Source: a virus
Taxonomy: Duplodnaviria > Heunggongvirae > Uroviricota > Caudoviricetes
IMG/VR virus record: IMGVR_UViG_2563366941_000005
DNA: 34,670 nt
Reading direction: 5' to 3' (one strand)
Positions 2,049 through 19,245 of this stretch are shown one piece after another. Under the pieces are notes generated by a model, which had not been told where the DNA came from, made no database searches, and worked only from the letters and a program-made list of their open reading frames with translations. Numbering within the stretch: position 1 is the first letter of the stretch; each line of letters begins with the position of its first letter. Both the position numbers and the translations under genes were made by a program.

Positions 2049-2114
2049 TCGTTTATCCCCAGATAAAAATATAGCAATACCAATTACATAAAATACTTCA
2101 GGCCAAGCATCATT

Positions 2115-3062
2115 TCACCCCTGCGGCGGTTCTGGTAGAGGCATCCAGAACAAGGCGTTCCCTAACCACGATAAAGTGCCGTCGCTCAACTCCACGTATT
2201 CCCCTTGCACCTGGCCTGCCATATACTCACCGTGCTTTGAATAAATTAAAATCCAATCATCTTGATCGGGCATTCGCTCACTACAGCTTATCCAACCATC
2301 CGGAGTTACCGGATAGTTGCCAGCCAGTCTACGCAAAACAGCCTTAACCGCCTCAATACGGTCATCATCGCAACTTTCCAGCGTATCTATGCGATCGAGC
2401 ATGATGATGGCGTTATCAATATCAGGATTGCCGGTCCACTCATTACCGCGATTGGATTCGGCAGCCTGGTTGCCGTGTACTGTTTGATTCTCGGCTTTAC
2501 CCAGTCTGTCGTCGCTGCATGAATGCCCTTCCAGCCAGGCCAATGCTTGTCGCATGAAATACGCAATATGTTTGCCGTGGTAATCGTCTTCATCGATGTG
2601 AAAAGCGATACTGCGGATGTATTCAATTGCGTTTTCAATGGCCTCCGGCGTTATCGGCGCTGACATATTTTGATTTTGGAGTGCCAAGACGCGGCTGGCA
2701 TCCTCAACATCTTTAACTGCATCTGCGCAGTAGTTATAGCGATTGCACTCCACTAACTTCTGCTTGAGATTTTCAATTGCTTGCGCGACATCAGCCTGTA
2801 TTACCGGCACAGGCGGAGCGGCGTACAAAGCAATCAAACTGCCAATTGTTCGCTCTTTCGCATCATCCAGACATGGGTAGGCCGGGGTAGATACAATTGC
2901 ATTATCTCTAAGGTCGTCAGCCATTACCCATGCCACCGGCTCTGCTTCCAGCGAGGCTAACGCTATTTCATAAGCCCGGCGCTCAATATTGTCTCTCACG
3001 TCCAGGCTGCCTATGCGCTCTTTGATTTCTTTAATCAGTTCTTTGTCGGTAAAAGTGCTCAT
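2115..3062 (-). CDS. Phage protein with C-terminal DUF551-like domain
   Basis: ORF ending WMPLPEPPQG (typical DUF551 terminus); start moved to ATG at 3062 with AAGGAG SD 6 nt upstream; N-terminus paralogous to the next gene. Confidence 0.75.
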   Translation of the reverse strand: MSTFTDKELIKEIKERIGSLDVRDNIERRAYEIALASLEAEPVAWVMADDLRDNAIVSTPAYPCLDDAKERTIGSLIALYAAPPVPVIQADVAQAIENLKQKLVECNRYNYCADAVKDVEDASRVLALQNQNMSAPITPEAIENAIEYIRSIAFHIDEDDYHGKHIAYFMRQALAWLEGHSCSDDRLGKAENQTVHGNQAAESNRGNEWTGNPDIDNAIIMLDRIDTLESCDDDRIEAVKAVLRRLAGNYPVTPDGWISCSERMPDQDDWILIYSKHGEYMAGQVQGEYVELSDGTLSWLGNALFWMPLPEPPQG

Positions 3063-3063
3063 A

Positions 3064-3513
3064 TCAATCTCCTTTGGTACCAATGTTTACAGCCTGGCAA
3101 GCCTCTTTGAGCACCCAGTCAACAGCGTCTTTCCATGCTCCGGTTTCGACTGGCGGATTTTCACGCTTAACCTGTTCATAGAAGCGCACTGCTTTAATCA
3201 ATCCTTCTGGTGTCAGTGGCACAGGTGGAGCGGTGAATAACGCCTGAATTTCATAGTTCGGCCTGTCGTTGCAATCCTCTTTTGTCGGTACATATTTCCA
3301 GTCACCAACCCACTGCTCCCCCTGAGAGTCCGTAACGCCTTTTTTCACATAGCGATATCGCCACGCTATCGGCTCTGCTTCCAGCGATGCCTGTGCGATA
3401 CGAAACACATTGGCAAGCAGGCTGTCTGAGGATTGGTTATCGTGCGCTGGGTCGCTCAGGAAGCCATTGATGAATGATTTAATCTTCGAGCTTTCTCTGG
3501 TAATAGTGGTCAT
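3064..3513 (-). CDS. Hypothetical phage protein, N-terminal paralog of the DUF551 protein
   Basis: 149-aa ORF sharing ASLEAEP[IV]AW and APPVP motifs with 2115..3062; AAGGAG SD; stop overlaps the next SD. Confidence 0.7.
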   Translation of the reverse strand: MTTITRESSKIKSFINGFLSDPAHDNQSSDSLLANVFRIAQASLEAEPIAWRYRYVKKGVTDSQGEQWVGDWKYVPTKEDCNDRPNYEIQALFTAPPVPLTPEGLIKAVRFYEQVKRENPPVETGAWKDAVDWVLKEACQAVNIGTKGD

Positions 3514-3514
3514 A

Positions 3515-3540
3515 TCACTCTCCTTTGATGCGAATGCCAG
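3515..3540. repeat. Gene-junction 26-mer TCACTCTCCTTTGATGCGAATGCCAG (copy 1)
   Basis: Exact copy of 4009-4034; encodes the C-terminal GIRIKGE plus stop of the upstream gene and the SD of the next. Confidence 0.9.
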
Positions 3541-4006
3541 TGGTACTCATTCTCCTGATTTCCCAGAGCACACGAGGAACACCACCGTTTCCGACCGGAT
3601 CGCGTTTACTCCGCAGGGCGACGCTTGATTCCGCCCAGCTTTTTCTTGGAGGAAGCTCTTTCACACGAACAAAACCAGCTGCGCGGAGAGATGCTCCTGA
3701 TTCATCTGCCTGGGTGTACGTAATACAACGTTGATAACCCATAGCCTTTGCTGCCCGCCAGACAGCACCATAAAGCGCGCTGTTAGCGTTGCGTTCTCCT
3801 GTGGTACATGTGCGATTTACTTCAAGCGTTAATCCATCGTCCAAATGTCGTGCAACAGGTCTACCGGCTGTCGCCACACCTATCAATTCTCCGGCATCAT
3901 TTCTCAGACCAATGCTGAATTTATGCCCCACCGGGGGTTTATTGTGTCGGTGATGTCTGGATATAAACGCCTTCGCAACACGAAGAGTAACCGGTGAAAT
4001 TTGCAT
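3515..4006 (-). CDS. Hypothetical early-left protein (163 aa), possible acetyltransferase-like fold
   Basis: ATG at 4006 with AAAGGAGAG SD; ends GIRIKGE inside the conserved junction 26-mer; the fold suggestion is a weak pattern impression only. Confidence 0.6.
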   Translation of the reverse strand: MQISPVTLRVAKAFISRHHRHNKPPVGHKFSIGLRNDAGELIGVATAGRPVARHLDDGLTLEVNRTCTTGERNANSALYGAVWRAAKAMGYQRCITYTQADESGASLRAAGFVRVKELPPRKSWAESSVALRSKRDPVGNGGVPRVLWEIRRMSTTGIRIKGE

Positions 4007-4008
4007 TC

Positions 4009-4034
4009 TCACTCTCCTTTGATGCGAATGCCAG
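4009..4034. repeat. Gene-junction 26-mer TCACTCTCCTTTGATGCGAATGCCAG (copy 2)
   Basis: Exact copy of 3515-3540 at the Ea22-like gene terminus. Confidence 0.9.
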
Positions 4035-4734
4035 GGGCGCGTGGCACATTAACTTCCACGATGCGCACTGTTGGTTTGTACATCTCAATCGCTGTCAGCC
4101 AGTCAGCTCCTGTCATGCGCTTTTCCACATCGCCATTAGTCCACTGAACCGGTACACCAATAGCCTTCATCGCGATTTCTATTTCCCCGGCGATGGCGCT
4201 TTTTCCGCAACCAGTAAAACCAGAAACAACGACAAGAACTTCGCCTTTGGCTGGTTTTATTTCCCGTGCTTCCAGTTCTGCAATGCGCTTCTCTGCGGCT
4301 TCCAGCTTCTCGCGCATATCGTCAACGTACTCGACCAGAGATCCGCCAGCAGGAATTTCGCATTCCTCGACCAGTTGGAAGTAGATATCAGCTGCGGCCC
4401 GTGTGTTGCTATGCCTAGCGTCGCCCATCTCACCTTCACGAAGAGCATCGCGTTCGGCGGTAAGATTGGCTATTTTGCTGTCTTTGCCTTCCAGCTCAAC
4501 GCGCAGCCTCCCAACCGTAAGCGCAATATCCTCGTTCTCCTGGTCGCGGCGTTTGATGTATTGCTGGTTTCTTTCCCGTTCATCCAACAATACCAGCGCG
4601 ATATCTGGCGAAAAGTGCTTCATAAAATCGTTAAGCGCATTAATTCGCTGATCGAAAGGCATTACAGGTGCTTCACCAGCAATTTTTGTTTTTTCAGCGA
4701 TTTCACGAAGCTTTTGATAATCAATCTTGCTCAC
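4009..4734 (-). CDS. Ea22-like early-left protein (coiled-coil rich)
   Basis: Start reassigned to GTG at 4734 with AAGGAGG SD 6 nt upstream (GTGA overlap with upstream stop); charged coiled-coil composition; position in the ead/Ea region; ends GIRIKGE. Confidence 0.6.
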   Translation of the reverse strand: MSKIDYQKLREIAEKTKIAGEAPVMPFDQRINALNDFMKHFSPDIALVLLDERERNQQYIKRRDQENEDIALTVGRLRVELEGKDSKIANLTAERDALREGEMGDARHSNTRAAADIYFQLVEECEIPAGGSLVEYVDDMREKLEAAEKRIAELEAREIKPAKGEVLVVVSGFTGCGKSAIAGEIEIAMKAIGVPVQWTNGDVEKRMTGADWLTAIEMYKPTVRIVEVNVPRAPGIRIKGE

Positions 4735-5081
4735 TGGTTGCCTCCTTTGCGAAGCTGTTCCGCCCATTCTTCTAGGGATTTCTCCGCATATTCACCGGAC
4801 AGGCCATCAATCGGGTGTGGTTCATTAGCCAACTCTTCTTTCGCTGACAGAATCATGCGTGTAACGTCGAAAACTTCACGTAAAGACTTATTGATAAATC
4901 CGTGATTGAAAGCCGCAGCAAGACGGCTTGCGGTATAGTTAATACCCTCGTTGCGAGCCTCAGCACGTACTTCATCGAATTTACGCACCAGATACTCAGC
5001 ATTTGTTTCATTCACTTTCAGATCTCGTGGTACACATTTCCCGCGAAGAAACCCTTCCATTTCGAAAACATTCATGCGCAT
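4731..5081 (-). CDS. Hypothetical phage protein (116 aa)
   Basis: ORF translationally coupled to both neighbours; GGAG SD. Confidence 0.5.
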   Translation of the reverse strand: MRMNVFEMEGFLRGKCVPRDLKVNETNAEYLVRKFDEVRAEARNEGINYTASRLAAAFNHGFINKSLREVFDVTRMILSAKEELANEPHPIDGLSGEYAEKSLEEWAEQLRKGGNQ

Positions 5082-5608
5082 TTGCGTAACTCCGATAACT
5101 CGTTAAAACGTTCCATAAACATCCCGTAGGCATGGCCTGGCGACAGTGGAATCACTTTGAACATCTCTGTTGCCGGGATACCTTCCAGTACAGGCCAGAA
5201 AGAGCTATCATCAAGCCCGAGATCGCGACGTTCGGTTGCCAGCATAATGAGATCGGCATATTTCACTGGCGTGCTCATAACAGGAGGTAACCCGTATTTC
5301 TCACGGATTACGGCGTCTATTTTTTCTTCCATCCGTTTATAGTCAGGAAGAAGGCGTTTCAGTGGAGCTGGGATGTCCTGGCAATACGCTTCTGTTGCAT
5401 CATGCATTAACGCTTCAAAAGCAAATTCCTGCGGTACCAGCTGGCTGCAAAGCACCGCATGTTGGGCGACGCTGTAGAAGTGTGAAAGATGTCCTGCAAA
5501 GCGACAGATATTTGAAAGGGAAACCGCGATATCGTTAATCACGATGTCGTCTTTATTTATCTTGTCATAATAAAAATGCTTCCCGGAAAAAGTTTTAATA
5601 AATGACAT
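5072..5608 (-). CDS. HD-domain phosphohydrolase (YfdR-like 5-prime-deoxynucleotidase family)
   Basis: H..(28 aa)..HD motif (AQHAVL ... LMHDATEAY); start moved to ATG at 5608 with GGAGAA SD. Confidence 0.8.
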   Translation of the reverse strand: MSFIKTFSGKHFYYDKINKDDIVINDIAVSLSNICRFAGHLSHFYSVAQHAVLCSQLVPQEFAFEALMHDATEAYCQDIPAPLKRLLPDYKRMEEKIDAVIREKYGLPPVMSTPVKYADLIMLATERRDLGLDDSSFWPVLEGIPATEMFKVIPLSPGHAYGMFMERFNELSELRKCA

Positions 5609-5735
5609 TTTGTTCTCCACGTATATGCGCTGCACCGCGCTGAATTTTGGTTAAAGAAAACCCTCGCCATCAGGCGATTATTGAGTCAATTATGTTTCCA
5701 TAAATGCCCCCGCAGGGGCATTTGCAGTAAGGAAA

Positions 5736-6560
5736 TCAGGCGGTAAAAGTACCAATAAAGGTTTCTACTTTGCTGTCTTTGAATTTCTCAACAAGCAGAT
5801 CACGAAATTCGTTAGCCATTTCTTCCTGCACTGCTTCCAGCTGAATAATGCGCAGAACCAGTACAGGACGATCGCCAGTGATAATGCTGAGGCGTAATTT
5901 AAACGGACGTTCTTGCAGCCCTTCAAACGGAACGCATTTAAATTCAAATGCCACTGGCATAATGTCTTTGGTCTTCGCTTCGACAGATTCCATCAGGGAG
6001 CGTTTGCCGCTGAAGTCATTATCTTCAAAATCAGCGGTCTGGTTTGCTTCAATCGTGATTTTACGGACTGCCGCAGCCGCTTTTGTTGCCTGAATGGCGT
6101 CACCATTAGCATCAAAGCCCACAAGGTAGTCGGCCCAGTCTTCAATCCATTCTGCCAGTGACTTCTGGGAGTTACGCTCGCCGTTAACAGACAACAGGGC
6201 AGAGAACGGTGCTGTCTTTTTCAGTTTGAGAGTGGCGGTGTTATCTGCGTGACCTGGTTCATCAATAGTACCCAGGTTAAGCACACTGACGGCACGCATA
6301 TTATCAGCATCGATAAAGCAGCGGGTGCCTTCATCTGCAAGATCTTTAGAATAACGGGTAAAATCATCGATGCTGGCAGTGGAAAGCGCGCCACGGAAAC
6401 GGAAGCGATTTAAATTAAATTTTTCCAGATCATGAATGCGGAAATTCTCAGGCAATGCCACAGCATCGGCACCAATCTTACTGATAATTTCATTAACACC
6501 CTGAGCAGAAATAAGGGCATGGATTTGATTAATTGCGGTTGCGTCTAAGTTCTGAGACAT
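5736..6560 (-). CDS. DUF2303 / YfdQ-like phage protein
   Basis: 274-aa ORF, same length and position as the YfdQ family next to the HD gene; GAGGA SD. Confidence 0.6.
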
Positions 6561-6625
6561 AATAAGTCCTCACTATATAAAGATATTCAGTGATGAGATA
6601 AATAATCAGTTAATTAAGAACGATA

Positions 6626-6988
6626 TTAATGACCTGCTGCGCGTAGTTTTCCGTCAGGTTCACCGGCAAGAGTCAGTAATTGTCCCTGGTCTTCCTGCAG
6701 AATAGTCAGGCGACCACCGCGATTGACATACATCGGCGTTTCGGTGGTGTCTTCTTCGGAAATTTTCCCGCGGTTAGTCGGGCGAACATATGAGAGTTTG
6801 TGTTTGATTTTCACACGGTTCTCATCAAATGGTTCGATTTCCAGGTTGAGTGAGACCTTACCTTTGGTTTTCGTGTTCATCACACCGGAAGCGACTTCAC
6901 TGAGAACTGCGCCGATTTTGGTTTCAAATACGCCGCCGTCCAGCTCCCCGATAAATGCCTGCACATCAGTACTGCGTTCGCTAGCCAT
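6626..6988 (-). CDS. YfdP-like small phage protein (about 120 aa)
   Basis: Start reassigned to the internal ATG at 6988 (MASERSTDVQ) with GAGGAG SD; the upstream part of the tracked ORF is compositionally non-protein-like. Confidence 0.5.
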   Translation of the reverse strand: MASERSTDVQAFIGELDGGVFETKIGAVLSEVASGVMNTKTKGKVSLNLEIEPFDENRVKIKHKLSYVRPTNRGKISEEDTTETPMYVNRGGRLTILQEDQGQLLTLAGEPDGKLRAAGH

Positions 6989-7133
6989 TTTGCTGCTCCT
7001 CATCATATCGACCCTGCAAGGTCGGTTAGTTTCTCCACAAAACAGAGAAGAACACCTGCGGTGGCAGCCGCCCGGATGGATTGGGTTATGAGCCCGTCGT
7101 CCGGTGATGCTCTTCTCTGTTTTGTAAAAAGAG

Positions 7134-7170
7134 CGGTACCAGCCGGAAGTAAGTGTACAAACTGGTACCG
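7134..7170 (-). terminator. Candidate leader hairpin / intrinsic terminator in the early-left leader
   Basis: 9-bp inverted repeat CGGTACCAG / CTGGTACCG with a 19-nt loop; on the minus strand it is followed by CTCTTTTTAC. Confidence 0.3.
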
Positions 7171-7658
7171 CCAAAGCAGTGGCTGTTGTGGTGCCGGTGC
7201 TGATCTCCGGCTTGCGGTTATTTCAGACTCTCACGGGCGTTTAATTGCCCCGCCGAACAGCTCTTTTCCGCAATAGCTGCAATGTCTTTCGCGCATCAGC
7301 CTGCGCATTCACCACAACGCTGAGAGCATTGCCGGTGTCCGAATCGAACGGACCTTTTCCCTGCCCAACCCTCCCATCTGAATGGGACTGTCTGGAATTG
7401 AACCAGCACTTATGCCTTGCTCGTCAATGCTCTCATCGTTGCGTCCTGGTCTCTTCCCAGGCGTCAAACCGAATCGCCACGCTGGTTAGGCGTCTTATCA
7501 GCATCATCATTGACTTGCACATTCCGGCTACCTGGTTTGTTTGCCCGAGCAAGGAGTGGATTGTCCCCTTTAACGTCCCCAGACCGCTAACGACGCATGT
7601 GCCATACGCCGTGTTACAACCAAATTTTGTTTAATCTTGCCTGTGGCATGTTTCTTTT

Positions 7659-7730: not shown

Positions 7731-8405
7731 TTAGGCCTTTATTTTGTATCTTCTTGGTTTTCCTGAGAAAATTACTGTACCAATTATAGAGCAATTACCG
7801 TTAATCTTAATGTAAGGCTCAGGCCAGTTTGGGTTTAATGCTTTGAGATAACGCTGTGTTCCATCTTCTATCAATCGCTTGAAGGTGGTTTCGCCTGTAT
7901 CGTGCATCAATGCAATAACGTCGTCACCGTGGCAGGCAGGGACTTCGGGATCAACAAAAATCATGTCTCCCGGGCGGTACTCATCAATCATTGAATCACC
8001 AATCACCCGCAAGATATAAGTCATTTCGCCACAGGGTACAGGGCAGGGATAAGTTTCTGCTGTGCTCAAATCAACCTCAGAATAGCCAACTTCTTTCCAT
8101 GCTCCGGCCTGTACCCATGATATGACAGGGACTAACGTTATTTGTTTGTTAGTAATTGAAACATCAGGTTTTTTTGTGATGTTTGTTGTCTGGTGTTCTT
8201 GATCAAGCCATCCGACAGGCAGGTCGAAACATTTTTCGATGTGCCGTGCCATGCTGTCACCGATATTTTTAGTAGCACCATCTCCCATAAACCTGCTGGT
8301 CTGGGTTGGCTCGCGATCAATCATGGTGGCAAAGGAAGAATTCCCGCCAACACCATCTCTCAGTTTTCTGGCGTTAGACCGCCGGATGTCATGGACTGTT
8401 TTCAT
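7731..8405 (-). CDS. cI: CI-like prophage repressor (N-terminal HTH, C-terminal S24 LexA-like peptidase domain)
   Basis: 224-aa ORF; C-terminal VIGDSM...GD..FVD...K signature of S24 autopeptidase; divergent from the cro-like gene; no SD upstream, consistent with a leaderless transcript. Confidence 0.85.
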   Translation of the reverse strand: MKTVHDIRRSNARKLRDGVGGNSSFATMIDREPTQTSRFMGDGATKNIGDSMARHIEKCFDLPVGWLDQEHQTTNITKKPDVSITNKQITLVPVISWVQAGAWKEVGYSEVDLSTAETYPCPVPCGEMTYILRVIGDSMIDEYRPGDMIFVDPEVPACHGDDVIALMHDTGETTFKRLIEDGTQRYLKALNPNWPEPYIKINGNCSIIGTVIFSGKPRRYKIKA

Positions 8406-9622: not shown

Positions 9623-9893
9623 TTCTGCAATTCCGGGACGTTACACTGTTCAGGCACCTTATAAAGCGGGTGCCGGGATTGGCGTCCTGAAATTCGCACA
9701 TGCGCATAACCGCGCTTCAGCGGTTTTTTTGCGCACGTTTCCTCACATCCAAATTATGGTGGGGCGTGCAGGGGCATCGAAAGATGCGCCGGGGTCATGT
9801 GCGACCGGTTACGCCAACCCTGTACGTCTCACCACCTCTGTGATTGGCGTCCCATGTGGTGAGTTTTCAAAATTCGCACATGAGGATGTCACT

Positions 9894-18521: not shown

Positions 18522-18597
18522 GGCCCTTTAGCTCAGTGGTGAGAGCGAGCGACTCATAATCGCCAGGTCGCTGGTTCAAATCCAGCAAGGGCCACCA
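18522..18597 (+). tRNA. tRNA with CAU anticodon (Ile2-lysidine type, ileX/ileZ-like; could be scored as Met)
   Basis: 76-nt cloverleaf: acceptor GGCCCTT/AAGGGCC, D arm GCTC/GAGC, anticodon loop CTCATAA, T loop TTCAAAT, encoded CCA. Confidence 0.85.
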
Positions 18598-18604
18598 TCA
18601 CATA

Positions 18605-18681
18605 CCGCCATTAGCTCATCAGGAAAGAGCGCCAGCCTTCGAAGCTGGTTGCGCGGAGTTCGGGTCCCCGAAGGCGGTTCA
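18605..18681 (+). tRNA. tRNA-Arg-like (anticodon UCG), noncanonical
   Basis: D arm GCTC/GAGC, anticodon stem CCAGC/GCTGG with loop CTTCGAA, T loop TTCGGGT; one acceptor and one T-stem mismatch; 3-prime end TCA instead of CCA. Confidence 0.55.
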
Positions 18682-18694
18682 TTATCTGTATCCT

Positions 18695-18771
18695 GCGTTG
18701 TTAGCTCAGCCGGACAGAGCAATTGCCTTCTAAGCAATCGGTCACTGGTTCGAATACAGTAGAACGCGCCA
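18695..18771 (+). tRNA. tRNA-Arg (anticodon UCU)
   Basis: Acceptor GCGTTGT, D arm GCTC/GAGC, anticodon stem ATTGC/GCAAT with loop CTTCTAA, T loop TTCGAAT, encoded CCA; one acceptor mismatch and a G/A at the T-stem closing pair. Confidence 0.65.
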
Positions 18772-18786
18772 CACTTATTTTCCCTG

Positions 18787-18810
18787 GCTCGCTTTTGCGG
18801 GCTTTTTTTT
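18787..18810 (+). terminator. Rho-independent terminator after the tRNA cluster
   Basis: Stem GCTCGC, loop TTTT, stem GCGGGC (one G-U pair), then T8. Confidence 0.7.
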
Positions 18811-19245
18811 AAATGTCTCACAATTCAGGCGGTTGACTGTTGTCTGGTTTGCGGGGAGTTTGTTAAAAGAAACTGGCATGGTGAATCCCCCTGTGCGGAG
18901 GGGCAATCAGCGAGTAGGTATATGGGATAATCGCGGATTCAGGTGCTGGTACTGAATTCACCGGGAGGCACCCGGCACCATGCAATGGCACATAGTGCCA
19001 CTCTCCAGCCCCTCTCCGGAGGGGCTTTCTTGTGGGCAAAAAAAAGCCCGAGTGGGTTCGGGCAACAGCATGAGATATACATTTTTATAATCGAATGGAT
19101 TTTAACCAGAATTCATAAGGCTGCGCAACTGCGCGGTCTTTTTCGAATTGCGGGCTGTCGTCTCTCTTCTGCCATTGTCCTGTAACTTCCGGACTTCAGC
19201 CCGCTCCTTATTTTACTCACAATATTATCCCGGCCGGGAGGATTC

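Follow-up and report, generated by a model that had tools for sequence, protein, structure and literature searches.

Results

The DNA analysed here (34,670 nt; the whole stretch is referred to as the window) includes a region of a lambdoid prophage operon that runs leftward on the minus strand. In the direction of transcription this region comprises an Ead/Ea22-like gene (4009..4734, minus strand; PF13935), the GTG start of which overlaps the stop of orf116, a gene for a Mom-like protein of 163 aa (3515..4006, minus strand; phrog_1384 "Mom-like DNA modification protein", E 4e-42; "XF1762 family protein" in RefSeq), orf149 (3064..3513, minus strand; phrog_660 / phrog_26213, no assigned function) and a DUF551-domain gene (2115..3062, minus strand). 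The only integrase of the window is a prophage tyrosine integrase (75-1361), and an excisionase (1395-1649) and a cI-like repressor (7731-8405) are also present. Gene annotation recognised no recombinase gene in the early-left operon of the window.

Two consecutive junctions of this operon carry the same sequence, TCACTCTCCTTTGATGCGAATGCCAG, which lies with 0 mismatches on the plus strand at 3515-3540 (copy A) and 4009-4034 (copy B), i.e. with a start-to-start spacing of 494 nt. No extra copy is present in the whole window at up to 3 mismatches, and none occurred in 100 dinucleotide-preserving shuffles. The bases adjoining the two copies differ on either side (A/C and T/G), which limits the exact repeat to 26 nt. 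On the minus strand, the coding one, it reads CT GGC ATT CGC ATC AAA GGA GAG TGA, and each copy encodes the residues GIRIKGE and the stop codon of one gene and supplies the Shine-Dalgarno sequence of the next, ending 1-2 nt before the following start. Copy B thus holds the last 8 codons (..P-GIRIKGE) and the TGA of the Ead/Ea22-like gene together with the Shine-Dalgarno sequence AAGGAG for the Mom-like gene (ATG at 4006-4004), and copy A the last 8 codons (..T-GIRIKGE) and the TGA of the Mom-like gene together with the Shine-Dalgarno sequence for orf149 (ATG at 3513-3511). These readings bear out the original prediction, in which the 26-mer was said to occur exactly twice and to combine a shared protein end, a stop and a Shine-Dalgarno sequence. 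AAGGAG is placed 6 nt upstream of the next ATG, and AAAGGAGAGTGA is followed by TATG or GAATG, which gives the stop/start arrangements TGA-T-ATG and TGA-GA-ATG. The C-termini read ...VPRAPGIRIKGE in the Ead/Ea22-like protein and ...RMSTTGIRIKGE in the Mom-like protein, each followed by the stop, and the 7-residue tail is all that BLASTP aligns between the two proteins.

A diverged member of the same boundary family lies on the minus strand at 3064..3085, between orf149 and the DUF551 gene, where orf149 ends in ...NIGTKGD and a stop (AAAGGAGATTGATATG). This junction had been proposed to be related to the 26-mer, and the relationship is real: it is about 85% identical to the core of the 26-mer, and a repeat search joins all three junctions in one 38-nt family (3048-3085, 3499-3536 at 84% and 3993-4030 at 68%). 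Intermediate junctions fuse an orf149-type end to the core at varied points, giving the protein ends NIGIKGE and NIRIKGE elsewhere and NIGTKGD in the window. No RNA structure is indicated: shuffled sequences fold as well as the three junctions or the motif alone, and none of the 7 Rfam 15 matches in the window falls between 3000 and 4100.

Far from being absent from related phages or confined to this one duplication, the 26-mer was found in at least 120 IMG/VR viral contigs (exact-match scan), in 376 phage records (blastn, 34-nt query) and in about half of the complete E. coli genomes (2654 of 5426). In the latter it occupies 4904 places, 236 of them on plasmids, with up to 8 per genome; the sampled prophages are often closely related, so that such occurrence counts are not counts of independent events. 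Among the IMG/VR contigs listed most have one copy only. The phage records include HK620 (between hkaG and hkaF), lambda (3' end of ea22), P7, many Stx-converting phages and P22-like phages of Salmonella. The sequence is hence short and conserved at the nucleotide level, as a 24-26-mer, among different phages. Nearly all of the 122 occurrences examined end an ORF and continue as TGA-N-ATG or TGA-N-GTG, and the patch sits at a gene boundary in constant orientation relative to transcription. The exception is the relic form seen in lambda, where the exact 26-mer ends ea22 (..MMSDAGIRIKGE and stop) and is followed by GATCGG without a start codon, which marks the junction there as a relic.

The ORFs flanking the 26-mer were catalogued using 109 distinct occurrences, defined by different 150-nt flanks, and flank classes obtained by clustering 60-nt flanks. 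The 13 left and 25 right classes were seen in 65 combinations, one left class having 12 right partners and one right class 9 left partners, and in 82% of pairs neither flank was common to both occurrences. Non-homologous flanks thus surround the same sequence in different genomes, and the modules on its two sides have been reassorted; that unrelated ORFs border the 26-mer, as originally stated for the window, applies to the phage population as well. By the 70 residues that precede the tail, at least 9 unrelated groups of protein ends can be told apart, among them Ea22-type coiled coils, the Mom-like protein, an HNH endonuclease and a "..FRNAEYIGIRNWL" protein, and the downstream proteins form at least 16 clusters. 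Single-linkage clustering of whole upstream ORFs had placed 111 of 121 in one cluster, because Ead/Ea22-type proteins are themselves mosaic, and was replaced by the C-terminal 70 aa and the 60-nt flanks.

Linkage changes sides across the core. Codon -2 before the core is tied to the left class (AMI 0.66) and hardly to the right class (0.06), and the corresponding values are 0.38 and 0.07 for codon -1. For the base after the TGA they are 0.06 (left) and 0.27 (right), and for the second codon of the next gene 0.10 and 0.69. Left against right class gives an AMI of 0.11, close to independence. Near independence of the flanks, together with a switch of linkage across the core, brackets the exchange points to the patch itself.

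The breakpoints themselves were located by alignment. HSP endpoints had first been taken in loci selected by the motif, many of them falling inside genes, and the test was redone on 80 loci fetched via the Mom-like protein, without use of the motif; 69 of these have an alignment across the middle of that gene. In 53 of the 69, similarity to the window ends at 3510/3511, at the start codon that immediately follows copy A and opens the next gene, and in 6 more it ends at 3493-3503. At the opposite boundary, 39 of the 69 loci lose similarity within copy B (4018-4034). Read-through on both sides was seen in only 2 of the 69, and these two are one and the same prophage at 100% identity. Even in loci that were chosen independently of the patch, similarity is therefore lost where the patch lies. 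In three loci (L003, L013 and L110) the cassette matches window positions 3505-4030 at 99.4%. The C-terminal part of orf149, downstream of the cassette in the window, lies upstream of it in L003, so that gene order is permuted. Recurrent breakpoints are also found inside Ea22, around 4258-4290, 4490 and 4603-4608, where there is no such patch. Since many mosaic breakpoints lie inside genes that lack the patch, the patch is not required for mosaicism.

A site without the cassette was identified with a synthetic query, in which the orf149 side and the Ea22 side were joined through a single 26-mer. All 402 nt of this query are present at 100% and in one piece in E. coli FDAARGOS_1268. In 19AR1724 and like genomes the query is found in two pieces that span 896 nt, i.e. 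in the filled form, and filled forms occur at 99.8-100% identity in other genomes. Compared with the window, FDAARGOS_1268 matches 2108-3543 at 99.2% and 4009-4608 at 98.8%; the two matches abut, overlapping by 29 nt that correspond to one 26-mer, and the 494-bp cassette is absent. A second, more diverged empty site is found in strain N32. The cassette between the two copies is thus polymorphic by exact presence and absence, which agrees with the originally proposed exchange of cassettes; the pattern in FDAARGOS_1268 is the signature expected of cassette gain or loss by exchange within direct repeats. The prophage with the empty site in FDAARGOS_1268 encodes RecT and a PD-(D/E)XK nuclease.

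Conservation of the patch is at the level of DNA and not of the peptide. A degenerate scan for any DNA encoding GIRIKGE and TGA, which could return synonymous variants only, yielded 120 rows, 106 with the identical 24-mer and 14 with a single synonymous change (GAA 7, GGT 6, ATT 1). The Arg, Ile and Gly codons of the motif are essentially fixed in these rows, and the 5' half of the patch, CTGGCATTCGCATC, is as invariant as the 3' half, synonymous sites included. The C-terminal tail GIRIKGE is dispensable. In the Mom-like protein of the window the core ends ..VLWEIRR and the tail MSTTGIRIKGE is an add-on; homologues share this end of the core and then continue with MSTTGIRIKGE, MK, GV, AV or R before the stop. 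Other Mom-like homologues carry a different type of junction, with the ends SAAGIKVEVK and RAAGIKWEAE. The string GIRIKGE was not found in the literature searched.

A variant of the patch, GCTGGCATCAAGGTGGAGGCTGAGTGATG, encodes AGIKVEAE and a stop with a TGATG overlap and comes chiefly from Klebsiella phages, which account for 80 of its 90 records. Its 105 distinct occurrences in IMG/VR pair 40 left classes with 29 right classes in 90 different ways. Some cassettes of the Klebsiella type are orthologous to cassettes of the E. coli pool, among them the Mom-like gene, the "MALTH.ELCQIA" gene and the "..RNWL" protein, and one locus (L053) has a Klebsiella-type junction 5' and an E. coli-type junction 3' of the Mom-like gene. 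The patch is near-identical within a pool whatever its neighbours are, and divergent between pools.

Discussion

In lambdoid and P22-like phages of enterobacteria, the 26-mer probably belongs to the early-left accessory "ea" region as a conserved boundary (linker) sequence and, judged from the genome comparisons, would serve both as a translational junction and as a homology patch. The 3' half, AAAGGAGAGTGA-N-ATG, would act as a compact junction, with the Shine-Dalgarno sequence in the last codons of the upstream gene and stop and start 1-2 nt apart, and any gene placed behind the patch should then be translated within the operon. With the whole patch identical in DNA between otherwise unrelated neighbours, crossovers inside it could swap, insert or delete whole genes in frame and leave expression undisturbed. 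The tail GIRIKGE would be a by-product, because the genes of the operon are so tightly packed that the patch must extend into coding sequence. In the window, the two direct copies bracket a 494-bp Mom-like cassette that would have been inserted by such an exchange or could be lost by it. The original prediction had seen the junctions as homology patches for the exchange of cassettes, and in this exchange an explanation for the C-terminus common to unrelated ORFs. This interpretation gains support from the spread of the sequence, the many combinations of unrelated ORFs that flank it, the position of the breakpoints and the presence/absence polymorphism of the cassette. From these comparative data we infer that homologous recombination, and not selection on illegitimate joints, would make the exchanges.

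The identity guaranteed by the patch is 24-26 nt, often about 26-34 nt with the adjoining bases. PMC3945230 gives minimal efficient pairing segments of 23-27 bp (Red-beta) and 31-34 bp (RecA). The length of the patch would therefore be at the minimum for recombinases of the Red-beta/RecT type and close to that of RecA, and the comparison with the published segments makes phage single-strand annealing recombinases the likeliest catalysts. That the guaranteed identity is below the pairing segment of RecA counts against a role in recombination, as does the early-left operon of the window, where gene annotation found no recombinase. Co-resident prophages are common, as the presence of up to 8 motifs per genome indicates.

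The most serious competing explanation holds that the motif is kept only as an optimal signal for translational coupling or re-initiation: illegitimate joints would form anywhere, and those at a functional junction would survive (a Hendrix-type model). The 3' half looks as such a model expects, with a canonical AAGGAG placed 6 nt from the ATG and a gap of 1-2 nt between stop and start; this half would be conserved for its translational function anyway and to that extent counts against the reading as a patch. It also finds support in the Klebsiella version, where the Shine-Dalgarno sequence and the overlapping TGATG are kept and the rest differs, and in the many breakpoints of the region that use no patch. 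However, other junctions of the same operons, in HK620 as well as in the window, obtain their stop/start overlap from unrelated sequences, so that coupling does not need the 26-mer, and the 5' half has no Shine-Dalgarno role and yet is equally invariant even at synonymous sites. Furthermore, illegitimate joints would neither regenerate one exact patch between flanks that are 99% identical nor put the break in linkage so tightly within the patch. We thus regard conservation for translation alone as unlikely. Less probable by a good margin is a functional (A)GIRIKGE peptide, acting as a tag for degradation, localisation or interaction, with the identity of the DNA following from selection on the peptide. 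Such a tag would account for a tail that is translated on at least 9 unrelated protein ends, and the variants in the degenerate scan are indeed synonymous, a scan that could return no other kind. On the other hand, it predicts free synonymous variation where only 14 single changes were seen in 120 rows, close Mom-like homologues do without the tail, and the Klebsiella pool has a different peptide. The lambda ea22 end keeps the sequence without a following gene, and nothing there favours a tag.

A target for a dedicated enzyme, be it an attC-like cassette site, a homing-endonuclease site or a Chi-like hotspot, is highly improbable. HNH endonuclease genes do occur among the cassettes that end in the patch (loci L064, H103 and, in Klebsiella, H132), and the patch begins with GCTGG, like Chi (GCTGGTGG). 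But there is no hairpin or inverted repeat (fold z-scores -0.40, +0.46 and +0.28), and no recombinase or endonuclease is consistently adjacent, the flanks being highly varied. An attC-type site was rejected on the non-significant z-scores and on the sole integrase of the window being that of the prophage; Chi was rejected as well, the patch reading GCTGGCAT with 5 of 8 bases matching. Two exact direct copies 494 bp apart, in a data set where most other contigs listed hold one copy, might finally suggest a recent local tandem duplication peculiar to this genome. The chance of this is negligible: neither the DNA between the copies nor that around them is duplicated, the two genes are not related, and thousands of other genomes carry the motif with different neighbours.

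Phage HK620 was reportedly the source in which Clark, Inwood, Cloutier and Dhillon described boundary sequences in 2001 (J Mol Biol 311:657), building on a linker idea that is said to go back to Susskind and Botstein in 1978 and Botstein in 1980. PMC3029335, PMC2327257 and PMC3945230 credit Susskind and Botstein 1978 and Clark et al. 2001 with the proposal that homologous recombination between lambdoid modules is focused at such boundaries. As far as these accounts go, the 26-mer does not differ in kind from the lambdoid boundary sequences of Clark et al. 2001: both are short and conserved, sit at boundaries of genes or modules and have been proposed as foci of recombination, and the very 26-mer is present in HK620. 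The concept is thus already published. Only a handful of genomes could be consulted in 2001, and our counts at population scale, the exact empty site and the version in Klebsiella reach further; they extend the concept and do not change it. The value of the present data accordingly lies in confirmation and quantification and not in discovery, and the finding would not surprise a specialist.

Other known systems share some features with the patch. Relaxed or homeologous recombination by Rad52-like phage recombinases (Martinsohn et al. 2008, PMC2327257; De Paepe et al. 2014, PMC3945230) is likewise an exchange between temperate phages and prophages via limited homology. The mosaics described there are flanked by longer, diverged "shoulders" of 50-100 bp or more, whereas here a very short identical patch is found, the length of which matches the 23-27 bp segment of Red-beta (PMC3945230). 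Translationally coupled phage junctions also have the Shine-Dalgarno sequence in the 3' end of the upstream ORF and stop and start overlapping or a few nt apart. The 26-mer junctions have this layout, as read from their sequence; unlike the 26-mer, coupled junctions of the ordinary kind differ in sequence from one unrelated gene pair to the next. Integron gene cassettes are similar in being promoterless single genes in one orientation with a recurring boundary element and variable content. In contrast to integrons with attC, the 26-mer is no imperfect palindrome, an integron integrase is lacking, and the boundary is placed within coding sequence; exchange at the 26-mer would presumably proceed by general and not by site-specific recombination.

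Near-identity within a pool and divergence between pools are what concerted evolution through recombination would produce, and pool-specific functional drift would be a possible cause too. A more far-reaching scenario, which we consider possible though doubtful, sees the patches as "dialects" specific to host genera (GGCATTCGCATCAAAGGAGAGTGA in E. coli/Shigella/Salmonella, GGCATCAAGGTGGAGGCTGAGTGATG in Klebsiella). Each dialect would be kept uniform by concerted evolution, and together they might form an integron-like but recombinase-independent cassette system that defines which phages trade cassettes and is itself kept by selection for exchangeability.

The origin of phage mosaicism is debated between homologous recombination at short linkers and random illegitimate joining followed by selection. 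For the linker model the locus offers an unusually clean natural example, with an identical 24-26-bp patch between dozens of unrelated gene pairs, a break in linkage inside the patch and an exact pair of filled and empty sites. The genes shuttled by the patch include some with likely roles in the conflict between phage and host, such as the Mom-like DNA-modification protein and HNH endonucleases. The presence of the 26-mer in Stx-converting phages and in phage-plasmids of the P1/P7 type makes it relevant to the spread of accessory traits among prophages of pathogenic E. coli. The early-left operon of the window also carries a second, different conserved boundary sequence, CAGCTTCGCAAAGGAGGCAACCAGTGAGCAAGATTGA (4721..4757, minus strand), in which the end of orf116 (..LRKGGNQ and stop) is followed by the GTG start of the Ea22 gene; a near-identical form of it is found between hkaH and hkaG of HK620.

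Results and Discussion

The exact 26-mer also forms the end of ea22 in phage lambda, where it is read as ..SDAGIRIKGE* (2501-2531 of the fetched lambda locus). No start codon follows it there, the next bases being GATCGG, and in this reference phage the junction is a relic.

The cassette between the two 26-mer copies of the window (3515-4006, minus strand) codes for a Mom-like DNA-modification protein, as identified by phrog_1384 (E 4e-42), a weak match to PF25680 and the RefSeq name “XF1762 family protein”. This gene may provide an anti-restriction or DNA-modification function that moves as a single-gene cassette. Junctions of the E. coli and the Klebsiella version alike also enclose cassettes with HNH endonuclease genes; examples are the ORF upstream of the motif in locus L064 and the genome matches in E. 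coli CFSAN061763 (H103) and Klebsiella phage VLCpiS10a (H132). On a single contig (L053, 501-526 and 990-1018) a Mom-like gene is flanked by a Klebsiella-type junction on its 5´ side and an E. coli-type junction on its 3´ side. This hybrid arrangement suggests transfer between the E. coli and Klebsiella pools.

Phage-plasmids of the P1/P7/D6 type (phage records D6, P1, P7 and RCS47) carry both the 26-mer and the same cassettes of the ea type, so that lambdoid prophages and phage-plasmids have one cassette pool in common. The number of plasmid-borne places of the 26-mer in E. coli amounts to 236. In the prophage of E. coli FDAARGOS_1268 the same Ea22, orf149 and DUF551 cassettes as in the window were observed at 4770-7476 of the fetched locus. 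Here they follow the replication genes (replication protein P, DUF1064) and adjoin the terminase, rather than lying within an integrase-proximal early-left operon. Given this different placement, the cassettes move between operon positions.

A second conserved boundary sequence, CAGCTTCGCAAAGGAGGCAACCAGTGAGCAAGATTGA, which is distinct from the 26-mer, is located between orf116 and the Ea22-like gene (4721-4757, minus strand). It encodes the end of orf116 (..LRKGGNQ*) followed by the GTG start of Ea22. A nearly identical sequence is found at the hkaH-hkaG boundary of HK620, and in the fetched loci the boundary sequence occurs in at least six different upstream contexts.

Mosaicism in the window also extends below the gene level (2115-3513 and 4009-4734). 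The orf149 and DUF551 proteins have paralogous N-terminal segments in common (repeat families D3, D6 and D9; phrog_660, phrog_5117), and within Ea22 breakpoints recur close to 4258-4290, 4490 and 4603-4608.

Elsewhere in the window (9654-9839 and 18522-19093) several RNA features were matched in Rfam at gathering score: isrK (9654-9730), C4 antisense RNA (9752-9839), three tRNAs (18522-18768), STnc100 (18847-19037) and, on the minus strand, the anti-stx2 sRNA AsxR (19041-19093). Features such as these are typical of Stx-type lambdoid prophages.
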